A stretch of 62,819 nt of DNA, counting the filler. It is 9 parts of 9 records of this genome, joined end to end, with 100 filler letters (N's around TTAATTAATTAA, not from the genome) between each part and the next. Parts side by side here need not be neighbours in the genome. Positions count along the whole stretch, not along the records: positions 20,120 to 27,917 come from SRR31147125_19794; 8 more parts are not named here. One strand, written 5' to 3'. This document shows, piece after piece, positions 20,120 through 59,200 of this stretch (its first letter is position 1; each line of letters opens with the position of its first letter). The position numbers and the translations under genes were made by a program. The notes beneath the pieces were generated by a model. It worked only from the letters and a program-made list of their open reading frames with translations, was not told where the DNA came from and made no database searches.

Positions 20120-20129
20120 TCGGAAGTCA

Positions 20130-20203
20130 AAAATTTTCATCAAAAGCGGTCGAAAATCGCGAGTCTCGGACCCGCAATGAATCAGGGCGGGGAAAGGACC
20201 CGT
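20130..20203 (-). other. Lambda-like cos packaging site (cosQ-cosN-I2-like)
   Basis: Minus strand ACGGGTCCTTTCC-CCGCCCTGATTCA-TTGCGGGTCCGAGACTCGCG-ATTTTCG...ATGAAAATTTT parallels lambda ACGGGTCCTTTCC...TTACGGGGCGGCGACCTCGCGGGTTTTCG...ATGAAAATTTT (lambda recalled from memory). Confidence 0.75.
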
Positions 20204-20274
20204 CGAGCATCCCCTGCATGCTCCCGGCCAGCTGCCATCAGGAGGTAAGAATCTGTAAAATGTACTCAATGCAA

Positions 20275-21175
20275 TCAGCCTTTGCTTTCAATATCACTTT
20301 CATTATCAGTTCTTATCTTAAAATATTTAGAATATGTTGATAAATGAGTGTAGGATTCCATTTCTTCGATCATTTTTTTTGAGTACCTCATTTTGATATT
20401 TTGAACAAAAAAGAGTGATAGAATCAAAAAGAAAATGAATGAAATTGATAGTAACATTAGTCCTTTTAATGATAAAATTGATAATTTAACTGCTTCTAAG
20501 GAAATATCAAAACTGCCACTTTGACTTGTAGGCAAAAAATATAGTGGAAGAATAACACCTATAAAAAATAGAAAAGTGACCAAAATTAAAGCGTAAGTGA
20601 TTTGAGGTGATGATTCTGGATTCCCTTTAAGAGAGGCAAGCGTTGTAGAGATAAGACGTATCTGTTGCTTGGCATCTCGAAAAGAGTTATTGATATTTTC
20701 TTGTTCTTTTATAACCCATAGATTGATCCCCCTTCAAAATTTGGCTCTAAATTTGATGGGATAGAAAACTCTGAGCTATAAATTGAAAAAAGTTTATTTT
20801 ATTTCTGCTCTCCAAGCCTTCATAATCTGAAATTACATTGTTAATCATGTTGATTATTTTTAGACGTGGAATAAAAATAGAAAAATTTAAACGTTCATAG
20901 AATTGTTGAGCAGGAGGGTGCGGAGTAATTGAAAGTTTGTCTATTAAGTGCCTAATTTCTATATAAGTGCTTTTAAAATTGTATAACTCAAAGTCAAAAT
21001 CATAAACATGATCAATTAGTTGGCGGCTCCGATTTAATAGTTCCTTACAGTGAATGTTTTTCTCCGAGAAAGTAGATTGGTTATTCAAAATTTTGGTTAT
21101 AATAAAAGCACCAAACAAACCGACGATAGCAGCCGCAGATTGTGATAAAGAACTAAAGAACCAATTCCAATCCAT
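20275..21175 (-). CDS. AT-rich accessory membrane protein, unknown function (frameshifted near 20733-20770)
   Basis: MDWNWFFSSLSQSAAAIVGLFGAFIITK (TM), soluble helical middle, two C-terminal TMs; the frame of ORF 20275-20583 stays open upstream to about 20733. Confidence 0.7.
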
Positions 21176-21670
21176 ATGCACCTTTTCAAAATACCTTTTT
21201 CTAAAAATCAAGGTAGATTTGATACATTAGGGAAATAACGAACTCAACCTTAACGAATCAACTAAATTGGAGATAATCATCCATGACAGAAAATAGCAAG
21301 GTTAAAGTCTCTGACCGGTCACCCGGATAAAAATCATTCCTTTAGAAAGTGCAGGGACAATATCATGCAAACCGGTTGACCCAGGACTTAGCAAATGTTC
21401 AGTGTCAGAAGTTAAAAATGGCGCGGCCTGTTCCTACTGATAGCTCTATCTCTCAGCCGTTTTCAGGTAATGTTCCACGGCAAGGGTGAAAAGATTTGTG
21501 AAAAATTGCGGAGCGGGAAAAAAGGGGCACACTCCGGTCTACGCTTAAAGCCCCAGACTTTTGACCCCCGCACCCCTTATACGGCTTTAGCTCCAAGGCT
21601 TTTGAACGTTCCGACATGGTGTGAAGGAGAAGCGGCCACAATACACTCCACCTGCCTATGATTTGTGGTT

Positions 21671-21943
21671 TCACTTGTTCGACAAAGAACGCCGAGACGT
21701 AGCGCCCACAACCCTTGCAATGTCAAACGGCAACGGCCTTGGGCGCTGGTCAGGGTAGAATATGGCAACCAAAAGCCGGGCACAGTTCAATGATTCCTCC
21801 CGGGCGTCTGTAGTATCAGATGGTTTGCCACTGGTATCCCCGGCCATGGGGCAGCCCTGGCAAGAAAAATCCTGGCCATCCTTCACAGCCACCCGGGCAA
21901 GGCATGTGCTATACTTTCCGCACCATATGTTCCGCATAATCAT
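21671..21943 (-). CDS. Small Cys-rich hypothetical protein
   Basis: WCGKYSTCL...FSCQGC; ATG overlaps the upstream stop (ATGA). Confidence 0.55.
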   Translation of the reverse strand: MIMRNIWCGKYSTCLARVAVKDGQDFSCQGCPMAGDTSGKPSDTTDAREESLNCARLLVAIFYPDQRPRPLPFDIARVVGATSRRSLSNK

Positions 21944-22137
21944 AGCCGTTCCGGGATCCGGGTTCTGAGTGATTCCACAATCTCTGATTCCGTGCAGAAC
22001 CAAATTCCCTTGGTCCCGGATAGCTTTGATTTATGGGCTATGAGAATTCCATCTCTACACAGCCGTCGGGCCAGAGGTTTTCCCACGCCCAACCTGACGG
22101 CTATTTTTTCTAATCCGTAATAAAGTTGCTCAGGCAA
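21940..22137 (-). CDS. Small winged-HTH DNA-binding protein (Xis/MerR/Nu1-like fold)
   Basis: LEKIAVRLGVGKPLARRLCRDG-I helix-turn-helix pattern; RBS GGAG upstream. Confidence 0.6.
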   Translation of the reverse strand: MPEQLYYGLEKIAVRLGVGKPLARRLCRDGILIAHKSKLSGTKGIWFCTESEIVESLRTRIPERL

Positions 22138-22158
22138 TTATATCTTCTCCGTAATGAA

Positions 22159-22830
22159 TCAATCACAATTTGACTCTGGTGCAGGCGGGGTGGCTATGGG
22201 TGCATCTCCAGGAAACTGACCCGGCCATGTCAGGAACAAGGGGTGTATTCCGGGCAGGAGGTAAGCATTCCCCGCTGATACTCTGTTCATCAAATCACAT
22301 ATGTTTTGTTTTTCATGCTCAGAGGGTCTGGTTACTCGCGTCGCAGGTTTTTGAATGGCGGTAATACCATTACCTCGGTTTTTGGCCGATGGCTGCGACG
22401 CGATAGATTTATCAAGGTAGTAACCACGCTCCCAGCAATCACAATGAGATTCAGCATGGGTAACCGGGTGATCCTTAGGCCCAATGCCGTGAACATTTAC
22501 GATCCCACATACCGGGCAGGTGAAGTGGGAAACCCCATTTTCAATCTCAACCTTGAATGTCGGCACTTCTGGGAACTCATACCTGTCTATCAGTCCTTTC
22601 CGTGCGATACGCTTCAAACATATCGGACAGGTGACCTTAGATATCTTTTTTGTGACGGTGCACTCGTAACGGTACAATTGGAGCCTTCGTGATTTTAAGC
22701 ACCCGTTATTTGCATAGTGAATCAATGATTCTTCTCTTTTCCCCATTTTACCATACTTGGGCAGCCTTTCATTTTTCACCTTTTCAGTTTGATTTATAAA
22801 TCTAAAAATATATCGAGAGAGTAGTGACAC
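22159..22830 (-). CDS. Hypothetical zinc-binding phage-type protein (start uncertain)
   Basis: CPIC and CPVCG...HG...HAESHC motifs. Confidence 0.45.
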   Translation of the reverse strand: MSLLSRYIFRFINQTEKVKNERLPKYGKMGKREESLIHYANNGCLKSRRLQLYRYECTVTKKISKVTCPICLKRIARKGLIDRYEFPEVPTFKVEIENGVSHFTCPVCGIVNVHGIGPKDHPVTHAESHCDCWERGYYLDKSIASQPSAKNRGNGITAIQKPATRVTRPSEHEKQNICDLMNRVSAGNAYLLPGIHPLFLTWPGQFPGDAPIATPPAPESNCD

Positions 22831-23041
22831 ACCTAAGGGGTGTCACACACTCTATATATAGGGGGTGACACCCCTGACACCCCGCGCCAATAGGGGCTTT
22901 CAGGGGGCGTCACGGATGCGTGAGCGTGACACCCCCTTGAGAAGTCTTGAAACCCTTGATAGGCGGACCTTTGAAAGGGTGTCACACAAGCGATGACACC
23001 CCCATGACACCCCTGAGCCGGTGACACCCCTGTGACACCCC
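22825..23041. repeat. Iteron-like array (putative replication origin)
   Basis: 11 copies or variants of TGACACCCC in both orientations plus a CTATATATAG palindrome, immediately after the primase-helicase. Confidence 0.8.
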
Positions 23042-23055
23042 ACAATGTGGTACTT

Positions 23056-25198
23056 TTAGTTTTCCAGTGCATGGTAAACATATCCTTTCACCCCACCTGC
23101 TGATTTTGGTTCACATCTGATGAATTTGTATTTTGACGCAGCCACGATATGCCTTCTCGCAGTTGCAGGGGAAACCCCAGAAAAATCTTGATAGGCGGCT
23201 GCCAAGGCCTTATTGCTGCCAGCATATCCACCCATATCAAGTAGGGCTTGGCTGACAGCATTACAAATTTCCATCTGCTCGGCTGGAATGCTTTCATTCA
23301 CTGGTTCAAACCGTAATTTATCGGTCATCCTCAATAAAAACGATTCGAACAAGGGCATGTTGTTGGATTTCTCGTGCTTGACCCTTATACAAGGGATCTG
23401 GGCCGTTCGCCGGCCTGTTACTTTACCTTGGGAATCAATGTCCGTGATCCGGTCCTCTCCTATGAATTCCCGGCTCAATGAAATCATATTTCTGGACCAA
23501 TCAGGGATTGCACTTGACCCCCTGTAATCGCCGTTTTTGTTATTATGGTGAATGACAATTGGGGTGATCCCTGTTTCCTGGGCAATGAAAGTAATTGCAT
23601 CCAGGGCAGCCCGCATACGGCCGGCGTCATTCTCCTGCCCATCATGGAAACTGACAAAAGGATCAAAAACCACGATGTCCACCTTTCTGCCCTGGTGTTT
23701 TTCTGTGGCTCTAACAGCGTTAATACACCAGCTAACAGATTCCGGATTTTCAAGAGATTTGCTGATACTTAAAATATCTCCCCCCATGAGCGGGAAGTTG
23801 ATATATTTCAAAGCGGATTGATAGTCCGGGATATCTCCGGCCATTTTTGATAAACGAGAATTGACGGTAGCCATTGAATTTTCCGTTTGAAAAAATAATG
23901 ACGACAATCTTTTTTTTATGGGGAATTTACCAAAAGCTTTCCGGGGAACTTCACAGCAAACTCAAGAGTCATAAAGGTAGACATATTGCTTTTCCCAAGT
24001 CCCCCCGGTGCCGTTATAAGCATGAAATCCCCCTTATTGATGAAACCCTCAACAAGAGGTTCTACCTGTGGATTCAATTCCCTGATTCCCCAGGCTGAAA
24101 TGATGTCAATTGGTTCCGAGGGAGTGATAAGTTCCGCTTCTGATAGCTCGGGCTCCGGTTCAAACGAAACCTCTGTCGCATTTTTTATCAGGTCTTTAGC
24201 CCGTTCCGCCTGCCCGGTTTGCAAGGCATCATTGATATCAAATCCATCCGGGTCATCTGTGGCCCATTTGAATGAACAAACTTTCATTCGATAATCTCCA
24301 TTATTGACTGGAGCATTTTTTGACTGGCGCTATCATTGTCAACGCAGACGATAACCTTTTCGACGTGTGGTATGTATGGCCTCAAGGCTTTCACCTTAGC
24401 CGTATACGTGCTACCTCCCAGAGCGATACAACAAGTATCAGGAAACCACTCAACGGCCGTAATTGTATTGATAACCGCCTCACAAATGATGATGGTATTT
24501 CCCTGTGGATCCCCGTCAAAAGAGCGTAGATCGGCCCCGCACATGAAAAAGCATTCTGCCCCGGGTAGTGAACCTTTCAGGAACACCTTATTTGCAGGGC
24601 TTCCGTTTTTCTCTGTGAAGGGGAATGGCTTTCCATCAGTGCTGAGATACTGAATCGCCTTGACTTCTCCCTGTAGGGTTTTAAACGGTATCGCCACACA
24701 CGTTTTATCTGCATGTGTTTTAACCTGAACCTGTCACAGGTCATACAGAGCTTTTATGGTCATTTTTGCAATTCCTCGCCGGCCATGCAAAAAATCATAA
24801 ATTGCAGTCGGTTTTCTGGATTCGTTTAGGCTGGCAATCCCGTTCCACTCGTCCTGAATAGTACGGTTGGAAGTTTTAGGTGATGAGTTGTTTTGTTGCC
24901 GGGTAGGGGGCTGCCATGTGTTGCCTGAATGGCCCGGACAGTATTCTTTTAAAAGTTGGCCAACGTCTTTCCCATACCGCCACCCCTGAAAATCAATTTT
25001 ATCCATTCCAGTGGGGTGACATTGGCGGCAAAAAGCTTTTCCGGAATTGGTTTTATAGACAAATCTGTCTTTTCCGCCACAGACCGGGCAGGGACCACAA
25101 AGACTGTTTGAGGATTCCTTTACCAGTCCCGGGCAGCATGACAGAACATCTGGTAGAACGGATTTTAGCAACTCTATCTTGTTATCGGTCATGGTCAC
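23056..25198 (-). CDS. P4-alpha-like primase-helicase (Zn finger, TOPRIM, AAA_25/RepA helicase, wHTH), interrupted
   Basis: GPCPVCGGKDRF...FCRQC; IIICEA, CVDND, DINDAL; Walker A APGGLGKS; VVFDP, VIHHNNK, RGSSA. In-frame TGA at 24734-24736 and 1-nt deletions near 24288 and 23933. Confidence 0.85.
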
Positions 25199-25210
25199 GC
25201 TTAAACCTAA

Positions 25211-25426
25211 TTACAATTCGCAACTGGCCAAAGATCGAATCCTTTTGGCTTCTTTTATTTGTGCTTCCCTGGCTTGCTCTGCCATCCTTTTCCACTCGTC
25301 CAGATCCACATACAGTTTCCCGGCAATTTTAAGGATCAGGGCAGGGAACTTTTTCTTGCTGTGGTATTTATAGGCGGTGTGTTTGTTCAACGGGGACTCG
25401 CTGGCGGTAATTGATACAAGATTCAT
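25211..25426 (-). CDS. Xis/AlpA-like DNA-binding protein
   Basis: TAYKYHSKKKFP...KIAGKLYVD pattern; ATG after GGAAG; directly upstream of the primase. Confidence 0.6.
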   Translation of the reverse strand: MNLVSITASESPLNKHTAYKYHSKKKFPALILKIAGKLYVDLDEWKRMAEQAREAQIKEAKRIRSLASCEL

Positions 25427-25723
25427 AATTACTTCCTTCCTATGTTTTTGCGTTTGATTGGATACAACAATACAACCCGGTACATAATTAGTCAAGCGGG
25501 TAAAAGATGATAAGATGTTGAATTACGGTATGTTAGCATTATTCGATAATTATCGAGTAATTAATATTAAGCGGGTATTGTGTTTTTACCGAGTAGTTTT
25601 AAGGAAAACAAAGAGATAGGGTGAGGACTCCACAAGAGGGATGGCTCACCCTTTTTGCGAACTATGCGAATATTGCGAAGGGATTTTTAAAATGAAAAGA
25701 TACTTTTGTGCCTTTTATACGTT

Positions 25724-26564
25724 TTATATATGCGGTTTGGTTTTTAGTTTCTCTGCCACTCTTGCGTTTTTATAAGCTGTCCTGCAAATATCAGAACAGA
25801 ATTTTTTACGCCCCCTGCGCTGGATAGCTGTAAATCGTCCACATTGTTCGCAGAACAGGTAATAGTCTTGGCCGCCAAGAGATAGGAAGTCAAGAAAAAT
25901 ATTTGATAAGATTGGTGTAAAATACATCATAAAAATCGGAATCGGGGGAAATATTTCCTAAACGATTATAATATAATTCACCGCCAAATGTCCTCACCTT
26001 GACCATTTTTCCATCTAAGGGGACGAATGTGTCAGTTAAACTGGTATATTCTGCAAACAGCCTGCCGATCATAGGCCCTTCTTTTGTCTTATCATTGCGA
26101 ATATTGGCAAAAAGAACATCCCAGGGGGCCCCTGATTTTTTGATTTTTTTCAGCAAATGTATGGCTTCGCCTCTCAGTTCCAACACATTAACAATTTCGT
26201 TATAGTATACCCACTTTAATTCAAGTTCTTTTAGAATCGCTCTTTTTTTCTGATCTTGAATATCGGTGGTGCTGGTATTTTCTGGCAACCCCATATCTTT
26301 AAGCGTACTCTTTGCCTTTTGATATCGTATTTCCTCTTGGCGCTTAAAATAATCAATATCGGGGACAAGCCCTTCCTGTAAGAAATCCACCTTCTCAATT
26401 TCTCCTACCCAACTTTTGGAATAGTCTATAGGGTGCACCGCATCAACCAACTTTATGCCTTGACCAATTAACTGTCTAAAATCCCAGATTTTGATTTTTG
26501 GATCTAAAAATTTCTCCAACCATTGCCCCAACTCAACCATTTTTTTAAACTCATTACTGGCCAT
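25724..26564 (-). CDS. Hypothetical protein with C-terminal CGNR-like zinc finger, putative regulator (frameshift near 25935-25950)
   Basis: ORF 25890-26564 continues in another frame into CEQCGRF...KKFCSDICR. Confidence 0.6.
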
Positions 26565-26565
26565 T

Positions 26566-27726
26566 CTATTGATTTCCTTTCCTGGTATTCAGTTCAATAA
26601 TATCTGCCGTTCTTGTTTGCGTTTGCAACTGATCTGATAGGTTCACAGCATCTCTAAGGGTTTTATCTGCAAGATGGGCGTATCTTTGGGTTGTGCCTGC
26701 GTCCTTGTGGCTTAAAAGTTTTTGCACGGTGTAAAGATCAATGCCGTTGCTTACGAGAGAGCTTGCGAAGTGGTGTCTTAAATCGTGAAAACGGAAATCA
26801 GGGGGTAGGCCGGCAGCTTCTTTTATCTTTGTCCAGCTGTGACGAATTGTTTTCCGCTGTTCTCCTCTTGTGGAATAAAAAATAAAGGGTGTATCAAAGT
26901 CTCTGGGAACGTGAAGCAGAACCCCGGTGGCTTTATCTGAAAGGGGGAGGGTCTGGTCCAATACTCCTTTTGGATCTCTCAGGATCACGGTTTGTCGTTC
27001 AAGGTCCACATCATCCCAGGTGAGTTTAAATATTTCCCCCCGCCGGAAACCGGTGTAAAGGCAGAATTCCACAATAGAGGAGGGGATTTTATCCGTCCAG
27101 GTGGAGAGGGTATTTAAAAGCCGGGTTACTTCCTCTTCACTCAAAAAAGCCTGAATTTGATTGTTCAGCTTTGGCTTTTTCACCCGGTCACAGGGATTCG
27201 CCCCGGTATGCTCCCCCCATTGAATGGCCACGTTAAAAACTCTGGTCAGCAATACCAGCTGGTGCTTGATGGTGGTGGGGGATAGAGGTTTTCCCTTTTG
27301 CCCCTTCTTTTTCTTTAGGATCAAAACAAACCTTTCGATATCAAAGGGGCTTATCTTGTCCAAGCCCTTTGTCCCCAGTGCCGGGCCAATGTGCTTGTTA
27401 AAATTGCATTCATCCACATACCAGGACTTTTTATTGACCTTGAGCCAGGGCAAATATTTTTTATCCCAGAATTCTTTGAGGGGGATCGCCTGGGTTTTCT
27501 TTTTAATATCGAATTCCCCCCTCACCGCTGCCGCCTTGAATTTATTCTCTACCTCTCGGGCAACTTCAAGGGTATCCACAATCCGGGTTTTTTGTTTCCC
27601 GTTTACTCTGACTCGGACACGGTACTTTCTCCCTCTCTTGGGAATAGGTTCCCCACATTTTCCACATTTTTTTTGTGTCATTTGCACACTGGTTTTGCAA
27701 CTCTGACAAAAAAAACTGATAGCCAT
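26566..27726 (-). CDS. Tyrosine recombinase/integrase
   Basis: Catalytic R (TGFRRGE), K (DPKG), HDLRH, H (LSHKD), Y (RYAH); N-terminal CxxC...CxxC. Confidence 0.95.
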   Translation of the reverse strand: MAISFFCQSCKTSVQMTQKKCGKCGEPIPKRGRKYRVRVRVNGKQKTRIVDTLEVAREVENKFKAAAVRGEFDIKKKTQAIPLKEFWDKKYLPWLKVNKKSWYVDECNFNKHIGPALGTKGLDKISPFDIERFVLILKKKKGQKGKPLSPTTIKHQLVLLTRVFNVAIQWGEHTGANPCDRVKKPKLNNQIQAFLSEEEVTRLLNTLSTWTDKIPSSIVEFCLYTGFRRGEIFKLTWDDVDLERQTVILRDPKGVLDQTLPLSDKATGVLLHVPRDFDTPFIFYSTRGEQRKTIRHSWTKIKEAAGLPPDFRFHDLRHHFASSLVSNGIDLYTVQKLLSHKDAGTTQRYAHLADKTLRDAVNLSDQLQTQTRTADIIELNTRKGNQ

Positions 27727-27750
27727 TTTCTACCCCCCTCCAACCTAAAG

Positions 27751-27769
27751 AGTGTACCTATAGTGTACC
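27751..27769. repeat. Putative integrase arm-type sites
   Basis: AGTGTACC direct repeat at 27751 and 27762, between int and att. Confidence 0.5.
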
Positions 27770-27887
27770 ACCTGGTTTATTATGTTCTACCAAATAATAT
27801 CACACGGTATAAATCATATAACCGAGCACCGACTATCTGTCAAGGGATCTACGAAAATTTACAAAGGGGTACAAAACATAAAATTCG

Positions 27888-27917
27888 GACTTAGGATCTA
27901 GTGCCGCGAGGCGTGGA
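27888..27917 (+). tRNA. 3' fragment of tRNA-Leu(TAG), the att site of the element
   Basis: Anticodon loop CTTAGGA, 3' stem TCTAG and long variable arm GCC-GCGA-GGC; the 5' side does not pair as an anticodon stem; truncated by the contig end. Confidence 0.7.
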
Positions 27918-48433: not shown

Positions 48434-48478
48434 AGAGGTCGATATGAACAGATTTAAAAAAGTTGCTGTGATCTTTTT

Positions 48479-48578
48479 NNNNNNNNNNNNNNNNNNNNNN
48501 NNNNNNNNNNNNNNNNNNNNNNTTAATTAATTAANNNNNNNNNNNNNNNNNNNNNNNNNNNNNNNNNNNNNNNNNNNN
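48479..48578. other. Artificial contig linker
   Basis: N-run, TTAATTAATTAA, N-run. Confidence 0.99.
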
Positions 48579-57967: not shown

Positions 57968-59200
57968 ATGAAAAGACGTATATTAAATATAGCTCTATTG
58001 TTAGTAGTATTGCAAGTACTTGGTCTGACTAAGTTATCAGCCAACGAGGAGAGGCTTGTTGTTGGTGACACAGCAATAGATTTTCCAGAGAATCGTACAT
58101 GGTATGCTGGCAGTCCGGTAAGTCTGGATGAGAACAAAGGGAAAAAGGTTACTCTGATTTATTTTATGAAACCCGGATGTGGTAGTTGTGATAAATTAGC
58201 ACCACACTTATATCGCCTGATCCTGAAGAACAAAGATAATCTCTCTGTTATCGGGGTTACTGAGTATCCAGATAGTAAAATTGTAGAATATCTTGCCAAA
58301 CGCCTCGGTGATTATCCAATAATGCAGGATCCTGAGCGTAAGTTTATGGACAAGTATATTGGTAAGATCAATAAGTATCCATATATGGCTATTATTGATA
58401 GAGAAGGTAAGCTAGCGTGGTTTGGACGAGGTAAGTTTCACGCCCAGATAACAGCAGAGCTCGATAAAGTACTGCAGGAGAAAGAGCCTGTGGCAGAGAA
58501 AGCATTTGTGCCTGAGAAATTGAGTGCTCTGGTTGTTGGGGTAGATAAGTCTGATCTTGTTCCTGCAGTTTTGGCTACCTCTGAGAATAATGCAAAACTT
58601 GTTGGTACTACGCTTGAAGAGGCTGGTTATAAAGATTTAAAAGTACTCACTGGTGCTGATGCCACAGCCATTGCATTTAATGACAGCGTGAGAGAATTTG
58701 CCGGTGCTGCTACAGAAAAGGATGCGGCATTATTATACTTTTCAGGTGAGGCTATGCCTGAGCAGACAATAGATGGCATAGACTTGAAGCTTTATCTCAA
58801 GGATGCAACAGTCTCTTTGAAGAAGGTAATCAGTGATTACAAAGCAGTGAGTCAGTGCAAGAATATTCTTGTGGTAATAGATGCCAATAATGAGAACAGT
58901 CATTTTGATGTATGGGAGAATATTGCTCCGGACATGGAGAAGACTTCTGCAGGCGCAACGGTTATGCTTGCTGCTGCACGCTGGGATCGTTCGCTTATAG
59001 GTACTAATCCTGATACAACAGTATTCACCGAAGAGTTTGCCCGTATGATTCAACAGTGCAAAGAGGGGAATAATGAACTTACTCCGCTAATTCTCTGGAG
59101 CGGACTGCGAGATTCTATGAGTGCTATCAGTCGTGAAACAGGGGTTTTGCAATCACCATTTATTATCAATGAAAAAGCGTTCAACCTTATTGCTGAGTAA
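57968..59200 (+). CDS. Secreted thioredoxin/TlpA domain plus inactive caspase-like (peptidase C14) domain
   Basis: Signal peptide; CGSC; ALVVGVD, LLYFSGEA, VVIDAN, VFTEE, QSP. Confidence 0.75.
   Translation: MKRRILNIALLLVVLQVLGLTKLSANEERLVVGDTAIDFPENRTWYAGSPVSLDENKGKKVTLIYFMKPGCGSCDKLAPHLYRLILKNKDNLSVIGVTEYPDSKIVEYLAKRLGDYPIMQDPERKFMDKYIGKINKYPYMAIIDREGKLAWFGRGKFHAQITAELDKVLQEKEPVAEKAFVPEKLSALVVGVDKSDLVPAVLATSENNAKLVGTTLEEAGYKDLKVLTGADATAIAFNDSVREFAGAATEKDAALLYFSGEAMPEQTIDGIDLKLYLKDATVSLKKVISDYKAVSQCKNILVVIDANNENSHFDVWENIAPDMEKTSAGATVMLAAARWDRSLIGTNPDTTVFTEEFARMIQQCKEGNNELTPLILWSGLRDSMSAISRETGVLQSPFIINEKAFNLIAE

Follow-up and report, generated by a model that had tools for sequence, protein, structure and literature searches.

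A contig running from integrase to cos: probably half of a small mobile element of Desulfobacterales that may be a phage satellite

The contig SRR31147125_19794 lies at positions 20120-27917 of the window, by which we mean the whole analysed stretch of 62,819 nucleotides, and it carries an integrase gene at one end and a putative lambda-type cos site at the other. Our reading is that it represents one half, from integrase to cos, of a small mobile element at tRNA-Leu(UAG) of Desulfobacterales, and that this element is a phage satellite, either like phage-inducible chromosomal islands (PICIs) or capsid-forming; to this reading as a whole we give about an even chance. The element would measure approximately 15 kb. 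A first-pass annotation of the same DNA had already proposed a PICI-like satellite whose genes follow one another on a single strand, and the order is reproduced here: tRNA piece, integrase, Zn-ribbon open reading frame (ORF), primase-helicase, iterons, small genes, cargo and cos, with all substantial ORFs of the contig on the minus strand (Table 1).

The cos site and its counterparts in Desulfobacterales

A lambda-type packaging signal had been proposed at the left end of the contig, and the comparison with lambda bears this out. Positions 20213-20120, read on the minus strand, align with lambda 48470-48502 joined to lambda 1-41 with 57 identities over 81 columns and 15 gap columns. The alignment scores 60, above every one of 300 shuffles (27.8 +/- 4.6, maximum 47). 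Two exact words are common to both sequences, a 13-mer that contains GGGTCCT (lambda start 48470) and an 11-mer on the cosB side. The 7-mer itself starts at lambda 48473, and we take this lambda word to be cosQ. It is separated from the cosN-like core by 21 nt here versus 23 nt in lambda. The core shows a gapped alignment with the lambda cohesive-end sequence and is 1-2 nt shorter, and the nick sites are not placeable from sequence. In sites of the lambda type, cosN has nick sites staggered by 12 nt and partial two-fold symmetry, while cosB contains binding sites for the small terminase, whose gene comes next. According to the part of PMC4669245 cited here, cosQ comprises 7 bp, is highly conserved in lambda-like phages and is required for packaging termination. 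In lambda, R3 is located at bp 50-65 (PMC9026076, in part), and the contig studied here extends 38 nt beyond the cosN-like core. Judged by its sequence, the region appears to be a cos site of the lambda family.

A profile of four cos sites next to GpA terminases of Desulfobacterales, built without lambda and without this contig, finds a sole match in the window, at 20134-20205 (E=0.007, 12.3 bits; the next best has E=2), a score that is partly circular because the four sites were picked for the 7-mer. Besides the 7-mer, the profile alignment takes in the cosN-like core as well as the cosB side, which is rich in T/A. Another site, L059, was dropped from the profile, as its motif faces away from the terminase; with L059 included, the match in the window reaches E=6e-4.

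In the order to which Desulfocicer vacuolatum belongs, 13 of 151 genomes encode the GpA ATPase domain (PF05876). The search returned 19 GpA loci, 13 of which have at least 900 nt of upstream sequence, and in five of these 13 GGGTCCT faces the terminase 751-1338 nt upstream, with an estimated chance expectation of about 1.1. In three of these five (G066, G103 and G021) the motif is extended and reads 7-mer, C run, 16-17 nt, GGGGTC(G/A)GGGC. Suitable helpers would therefore seem, from these sequences, to exist within Desulfobacterales. In one further genome (G017; L053, L066 and L070), three GpA terminase matches of nearly the same score (283.5-283.7 bits) are each situated about 0.6 kb or less from a contig end, which suggests repeated prophages breaking the assembly near cos. 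At one of the loci with the extended motif, G021:C48, a replication initiator and a DnaB helicase precede cos, the small and large terminase come next, and unrelated genes follow; no head genes were found within the 20 kb read, in which 10 downstream ORFs were scanned. This unit (L173:17650-19874, L174:1-3010) sits between a type I restriction-modification system and the gene of an AbiEii toxin, and is either a prophage remnant in a defence island or a terminase-carrying mini-element.

A strict cos pattern has no match in 401 Desulfobacterales genomes. The matches of a relaxed cosQ-cosN pattern include four that resemble real cos sites; three of them were already known and adjoin terminases, and one lies at a contig end.

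Integration, replication and the DNA beyond the contig

The integrase named in the first-pass annotation is well supported, with strong matches in both Pfam and PHROGs. The protein begins with a four-Cys ribbon, in which C7, C10, C21 and C24 are invariant across 10 relatives. The best of the 120 relatives listed has 88% identity, and all six of those that carry an organism name belong to Desulfobacterales (Desulfotignum, Desulforapulum, Desulfosudis, two metagenome-assembled genomes (MAGs) and Ca. Electrothrix; 53-61% identity). No identical integrase, helix-turn-helix (HTH) protein or 94-aa protein is present in the protein collection by exact look-up. The helicase relatives found in genomes, five loci in all, come from three Desulfobacteraceae (Desulfocicer vacuolatum, an uncultured Desulfocicer and Desulfobacula), one MAG labelled 'uncultured proteobacterium' and one Bacteroidota MAG. 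The relatives of both proteins, together with the tRNA piece described below, support a host within Desulfobacterales as judged by sequence, in agreement with the Desulfobacterota lineage suggested earlier.

The first-pass annotation had named an attachment (att) site in tRNA-Leu, and this claim stands in part. Positions 27888-27917 correspond to positions ~30-60 of tRNA-Leu(UAG) genes, with one mismatch to those of Desulfocicer vacuolatum (G001) and Desulfobacula (G002) and two to tRNA-Leu(tag) of G021. A complete tRNA, on the other hand, was found neither by ARAGORN on the window nor by Rfam on the contig, and the 5' half is absent: the bases to the left of the piece are unrelated to it, and DNA of the element stands there instead. 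Such a geometry, with element DNA before a 3' fragment, is that of attP or of whichever att junction lies away from the intact tRNA, and the piece is a candidate att core. In the assembly graph of the source run (see below), it is covered by unitigs of 55 nt and 33 nt. Their word depths of 386 and 310 indicate that the piece occurs more than once in the sample, which is what one would expect of an att core plus a conserved tRNA. Upstream of the integrase gene stand two direct copies of AGTGTACC, 11 nt apart, which are candidates for arm-type integrase sites or for an int operator.

The replication module comprises a primase-helicase gene followed directly by iterons. The protein carries the expected domains and is colinear with an intact relative of 728 aa (P0001), with 76% identity over the C-terminal 283 residues. 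The earlier assignment thus stands as regards the domains, but in the record the gene is broken into four ORFs by one in-frame TGA and two frameshifts relative to P0001. The iteron array named in the first-pass annotation contains eight exact copies of TGACACCCC, seven direct and one inverted; the count expected in the whole window is 0.24, and none of 100 shuffles reached eight. According to PMC6092414 (in part), iterons come after pri-rep in PICI origins, and by this analogy the array is presumed to be the replication origin.

Much of the apparent decay is attributable to the record. One public run contains 97% of the sampled words of the contig and is probably its source; a second run of the same sample (X2) yielded nothing that matches the contig. 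A contig assembled from the source run spans 20120-27917 end to end and differs from the record by two adjacent substitutions at 24736-24737, which turn TGA into GGA (Gly, as in P0001), and by six insertions of seven bases in total, all within homopolymer runs. When these differences are applied by script, long ORFs are restored in four genes, in which the record therefore contains false frameshifts and a false stop. Because the homopolymer changes and the stop-to-Gly change restore these ORFs, the apparent decay is largely an artefact of the record. In the source-run version, the TGA and one frameshift of the primase-helicase are removed, giving a primase of 304 aa and a helicase of 410 aa whose ORFs overlap by ATGA, and the genes are intact save for this one split.

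Both ends of the contig coincide with branches of the assembly graph. At the left end, the shared unitig is 37 nt long and has a depth of 152. Two differences apart, 20120-20185 recurs in a 125-nt contig (depth 67.7), which takes a different sequence from there on and bears GGGTCCC 16 nt from the point of divergence, the same distance as that of GGGTCCT here. Judged by its sequence, this path would belong to another replicon that has a cos of its own, almost identical in cosN. A second neighbour, 7,022 nt long, has a depth of 72.3 (71.2 for the contig under study) and ends with 20120-20142; because of this shared end, it would continue the element downstream of cos. Positions 89-113 of this contig repeat, in the same orientation and 88 nt from its far end, the 25 nt found upstream of int (27752-27776), which hints at a second att arm and at an element of about 14.8 kb in total.

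Between the integrase and the cos site, smaller genes fill the contig. The Zn-finger gene reported near the integrase corresponds to a 68-aa Zn-ribbon ORF, which overlaps a 224-aa ORF; with the source-run differences the two become one ORF of 280 aa. The 224-aa protein has no homologue and no usable Atlas match. The 94-aa ORF had been called Xis-like, an assignment that is not upheld, as it has no match in Pfam, PHROGs or PADLOC; a structure predicted from its sequence alone, one long helix, gives no further information. Small Cys-rich and HTH genes, as listed earlier, are present downstream of the iterons. The Cys/His-rich domain (22390-22725, minus strand) belongs to a family of ~100-aa proteins with 94 relatives at E<=0.001 (P0005-P0098), for which there is no Pfam model. 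A confident structural model of the domain (predicted local distance difference test, pLDDT, 93.5) has no fold match in PDB or BFVD, the best VIA-align Z being 3.2. A 6.9-kb IMG/VR contig has one relative (L177:3103-3882) at a distance of 1.8 kb from a small-terminase gene; nine ORFs of that contig were scanned and show no further virion genes. The HTH_17-like gene sits after the origin and not beside int. The 110-aa ORF has no match in Pfam, PADLOC or PHROGs. Between it and the cargo, the ~460 nt of 21212-21670 contain only short overlapping ORFs and have no Rfam match; this segment may be a regulatory region or a small RNA.

The AT-rich cargo proposed earlier is evident from its GC content of 30.4%, against 45.1% in the rest of the contig. 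It has no match in Pfam above the cut-off, in PHROGs or in PADLOC, and Atlas gave only unnamed clusters. Two weak PADLOC matches on the contig (E=0.028 and E=0.0016) were not used. No head, tail, terminase or lysis family was detected in the 16 ORFs compared with PHROGs or in the ORFs scanned with Pfam. The earlier statement that capsid, tail and large terminase are missing therefore holds for the 7.8-kb contig and does not extend to the element, because the 7,022-nt contig follows cos.

Table 1. Features of the contig, in window coordinates
Feature	Position	Strand	Basis or remark
Putative lambda-family cos site	20120..20213	-	Alignment with lambda cos junction
cosQ-like GGGTCCT, exact	20201-20195	-	Within cos site
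cosN-like core, G-rich	20173-20158	-	Next 38 nt, up to the contig end, begin the cosB side
AT-rich cargo	20275..21211	-	Two ORFs (154 aa, 102 aa) containing hydrophobic stretches; one 312-aa ORF with source-run differences
110-aa Cys-containing ORF	21671..22003	-	ORF map; overlaps end of HTH gene
HTH_17-like (excisionase/AlpA/MerR-type) protein, 65 aa	21940..22137	-	PF12728 E=1.9e-5, 25.3 bits, under the 27-bit cut-off
Cys/His-rich protein	22159..22830	-	Family alignment of first ~110 residues (from about residue 36)
Iteron array (presumed origin)	22837..23041	.	Directly downstream of helicase gene
Primase-helicase (Zn ribbon, Toprim, AAA_25/RepA-like)	23056..25198	-	Pfam Zn_Ribbon_Prim, Toprim_2, AAA_25
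94-aa ORF	25211..25495	-	ORF only; between 224/68-aa ORFs and primase
224-aa ORF and overlapping 68-aa ORF	25724..26564	-	ORF map
68-aa Zn-ribbon ORF	25724-25930	-	Weak zf-FCS match, E=0.0057
Tyrosine integrase, 386 aa	26566..27726	-	PF00589 E=1.7e-34; phrog_1 E=9.5e-69
Two direct AGTGTACC repeats	27751..27776	+	26-50 nt upstream of int start codon
3' fragment of tRNA-Leu(UAG), anticodon stem through variable arm	27888..27917	+	tRNA gene comparison; truncated by contig end
Homopolymer-length deletions of the record	20727, 20785, 21517, 22736, 23931, 25918		Comparison with source run

The other parts of the window add little. It consists of nine contigs with spacers of the form N44-TTAATTAATTAA-N44, and 20120-27917 is exactly one of them, bounded by N spacers. 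Its GC content is 43%, against 31-37% in the adjoining contigs; across all contigs the values range from ~30% to 56%. Gene content also differs from contig to contig (a Suf cluster, EF-G, a MutS-like protein, a BlaR1-like peptidase and others), and the window looks like a mixed bin or metagenome record rather than one genome stretch. Ten large ORFs of the other contigs proved to be ordinary chromosomal genes without phage families, and for this reason these contigs are uninformative on host or helper. A 410-aa ORF at 57968-59200 (plus strand) joins peroxiredoxin (AhpC/TSA) and caspase (Peptidase_C14) domains.

The nature of the element

Searches of genome, viral and metagenome contigs found no close relative of the whole element, and no relative locus shares an accessory protein with the contig. 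The helicase search gave five loci in genome contigs (at most 48% identity) and four in viral contigs (at most 34%); in the integrase search of viral contigs, the top identity among the best 80 loci was 51%; the metagenome contigs yielded 25 loci, mostly short, at no more than 45%. For the locus scan, alignment A4 was too diverse, and the narrower A5 gave three loci. The replicon type occurs in nine of 401 genomes of the order (E<=1e-20), while P0001 has four weak matches in 50,697 phage records and one in 72,556 plasmids; by sequence, the type seems neither phage-like nor plasmid-like. In three relatives (L001, L002 and L005), an integrase gene lies 0.6-4 kb upstream of the helicase gene. The first of them, at L001:7008-14512 in Desulfocicer vacuolatum DSM 3385, has genes for an integrase, a 669-aa primase-helicase (48% identical over its helicase portion) and another DNA helicase, plus one ORF that weakly resembles small terminases (E=7e-5); no head or tail family turned up in the 19 ORFs scanned. 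This island is a possible cultured-strain relative of such elements. In the other two, the ORF maps alone show only small ORFs after the helicase.

If the element is a satellite, its life cycle would proceed as follows. It would excise after induction of, or infection by, a helper phage, its integrase acting in both directions at the tRNA-Leu core between the anticodon loop and the 3' end. By analogy with PICIs, its own primase and helicase would then replicate it from the iterons into concatemers. A lambda-family terminase (a small subunit and a GpA-type large subunit), supplied by the helper or by the unseen half, would cut these concatemers, starting at cosN/cosB and stopping at cosQ/cosN, and unit or multimer lengths would be packed into phage-made or phage-tailed particles. 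For induction by a helper and packaging into its particles, the second cos-sharing replicon of the sample gives indirect support. A unit of ~15 kb would need multimer packaging or small capsids, as for EcCICFT073 in the part of PMC6092414 cited. The unseen 7 kb may hold redirecting genes only, as in a PICI-like element, or a terminase and head module without tails, as in a capsid-forming one. A more specific form of the satellite reading is possible but, in our estimate, somewhat short of even: a cos-packaged satellite of ~15 kb belonging to an undescribed family in Desulfobacterales, with no protein but the integrase in a known satellite family and with a cosN shared with a co-resident phage of the lambda-terminase type.

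Several findings weigh against the satellite reading. The contig carries no small terminase, Rpp-like or capsid-redirecting gene, none of its genes can be assigned with confidence as a regulator, and a helper phage was not found. Beyond the cosN-like core 38 nt remain before the contig end, and a full terminase-head-tail module could begin in the next 7 kb. The link to these 7 kb depends on word depth, which is not copy number, and on one 25-nt repeat, and the run concerned, as the probable source of the window, is not independent evidence. The split between primase and helicase is seen in the record and in the source-run version alike, while P0001 is one protein. A cos was detected in none of the element's relatives; exact matches to the 16-mer of the cosN-like core number six in viral contigs, all of them chance matches with unrelated flanks, and the relaxed cosQ-cosN pattern has nine matches in the 401 genomes, equal to nine in the reversed control, without a clear terminase-less site. 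Finally, replication genes followed by cos are also a prophage layout in Desulfobacterales: in G066:C76 a DnaB helicase gene is followed by cos, then by two small ORFs and the genes for large terminase, head protease and major head protein. As the helicase of this GpA-terminase region stands directly upstream of cos, gene layout alone does not exclude a phage.

The main alternative, which we regard as rather unlikely, places this DNA at the left (early) end of a complete temperate cos phage inserted at tRNA-Leu: integrase, regulators, replication genes and a moron would stand upstream of cos, and terminase, head, tail and lysis genes beyond the end of the contig. An integrase, a replication module and cos are common to any temperate cos phage, replication genes precede cos and terminase in both G066:C76 and G021:C48, and the contig stops at an assembly branch beyond which DNA runs on for at least 7 kb. 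Yet the 25-nt repeat does not reappear until ~6.9 kb beyond cos, close to where the neighbouring contig ends, suggesting that the element ends there, and the primase-helicase has almost no relatives among the phage records. Moreover, no repressor or antiterminator family was found in the Pfam and PHROGs scans of the contig ORFs, which likewise gave no lysis family, and the relatives of the replicon adjoin integrases in small gene clusters.

It is improbable that the contig is instead a decaying or stranded integrative island (a remnant of a prophage or satellite, or a replicative genomic island) with a relic cos. The stop and frameshifts of the primase-helicase in the record would fit such a remnant, and so would the split that persists in the source-run contig; G021:C48, a cos-terminase remnant without head genes between a type I restriction system and AbiEii, illustrates the kind. 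However, the restoration of long ORFs by six homopolymer differences and the stop-to-Gly change points to errors of the record, cosQ is exact, and the cos region is nearly unchanged in the second replicon of the same sample. We consider it highly improbable that the likeness to cos arose by chance in an integrative replicon that moves by another route. It is true that blastn of 20120-20270 against the 50,697 phage records gave 10 matches of chance level (E=2), all in Arthrobacter phage portal genes and none in a cos region, and that the core is shorter than that of lambda, with the nick sites not placeable. This is countered by the alignment score above all shuffles, by the detection of the site with an independent profile, and by the cosQ-like motif that the second replicon keeps at the same spacing.

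Known satellites and the meaning of the finding

To judge by its gene content, the element would work most like the cos-type PICIs of Escherichia coli, such as EcCICFT073, without being fileable as a member of that group. As described in the parts of PMC6092414 and PMC9026076 cited, these islands begin with int, have all genes in a single direction and comprise a regulator, a primase-replicase with an iteron origin and accessory genes but lack genes for virion proteins, and their cosQ and cosN resemble those of lambda-like helpers while cosB differs. Unlike them, the contig lacks AlpA beside int, its replication protein is of the Zn-ribbon/Toprim/AAA_25 type and is split in two, and its host, known here from sequence alone, belongs to Desulfobacterales and not to Enterobacteria. 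In PICI-C, rpp starts at about bp 102 after cosN (PMC9026076, in part); the contig ends about there, and no rpp is visible. The PICI-type satellite of the first-pass annotation is supported in part: gene layout, integrase and primase-replicase agree with it, but membership of the PICI family is not established, as only two to three of the five core components used by SatelliteFinder are seen. Integrase and primase-replicase with an iteron origin are present in the contig. As for the regulator (alpA, merR or stl), the match of the 65-aa HTH_17 protein is below the cut-off and the 94-aa ORF has none; the capsid-morphogenesis and small-terminase/Rpp components are not found in the 16 ORFs of the contig, and the place expected for small terminase or Rpp lies beyond its end. 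In the part of PMC10085698 that defines these five components, elements with three of them are treated as ambiguous.

The capsid-forming PICIs are similar in their left part (integrase, regulator and primase, the regulator of the contig being a candidate only) and to the estimated size in the mid-teens of kilobases, and the ~7 kb past cos is close, by simple arithmetic, to the summed length from cos to the major head protein in G066:C76. Unlike in the core of that group, as defined in PMC10085698 (in part), no terminase, portal, capsid or connector gene is seen in the contig. P4-like satellites share integration at tRNA-Leu, an integrase, a primase-helicase and a cos that in P4-like elements matches the helper. 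Membership in that group, whose core genes include Psu, Sid, Delta, Epsilon, AlpA and alpha, was rejected, since core genes beyond integrase and primase-helicase are unmatched; the Psu, Sid, Delta and Epsilon families have no Pfam or PHROGs match in the 16 ORFs. In addition, the cos of the contig resembles that of lambda and not what we take to be the cos of a P2-type helper. With lambda-family phages that use a GpA terminase, G066:C76 and G021:C48 included, the contig shares the apparent cosQ-cosN-cosB order, the reading direction and the replication genes upstream of cos. Those two loci differ from it in having small and large terminase right after cos (in G066, head genes as well) and a DnaB-type helicase, the helicase of the contig being of the AAA_25 type.

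Proteobacteria and Firmicutes supply nearly all known phage satellites according to the survey in PMC10085698 (in part), the main text of which does not mention 'Desulfo'. A literature search likewise returned no described satellite in Desulfobacterota; the supplementary tables of the survey may list such hosts. If the element is a satellite, it pursues the strategy of known satellites by means of genes unrelated to theirs, and does so in a phylum from which none has been described. If the more specific form of this reading given above is true, it would provide the first satellite-helper pair for the sulfate-reducing Desulfobacterota, and the cosQ-cosN grammar of E. coli PICIs would be used for piracy far outside enterics. 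The exact cosQ common to coliphage lambda and Desulfobacterales prophages may serve as a marker for cos sites and their pirates across phyla. A cos-bearing, self-replicating, capsid-less island in sulfate reducers would extend satellite biology to anoxic sediment communities.

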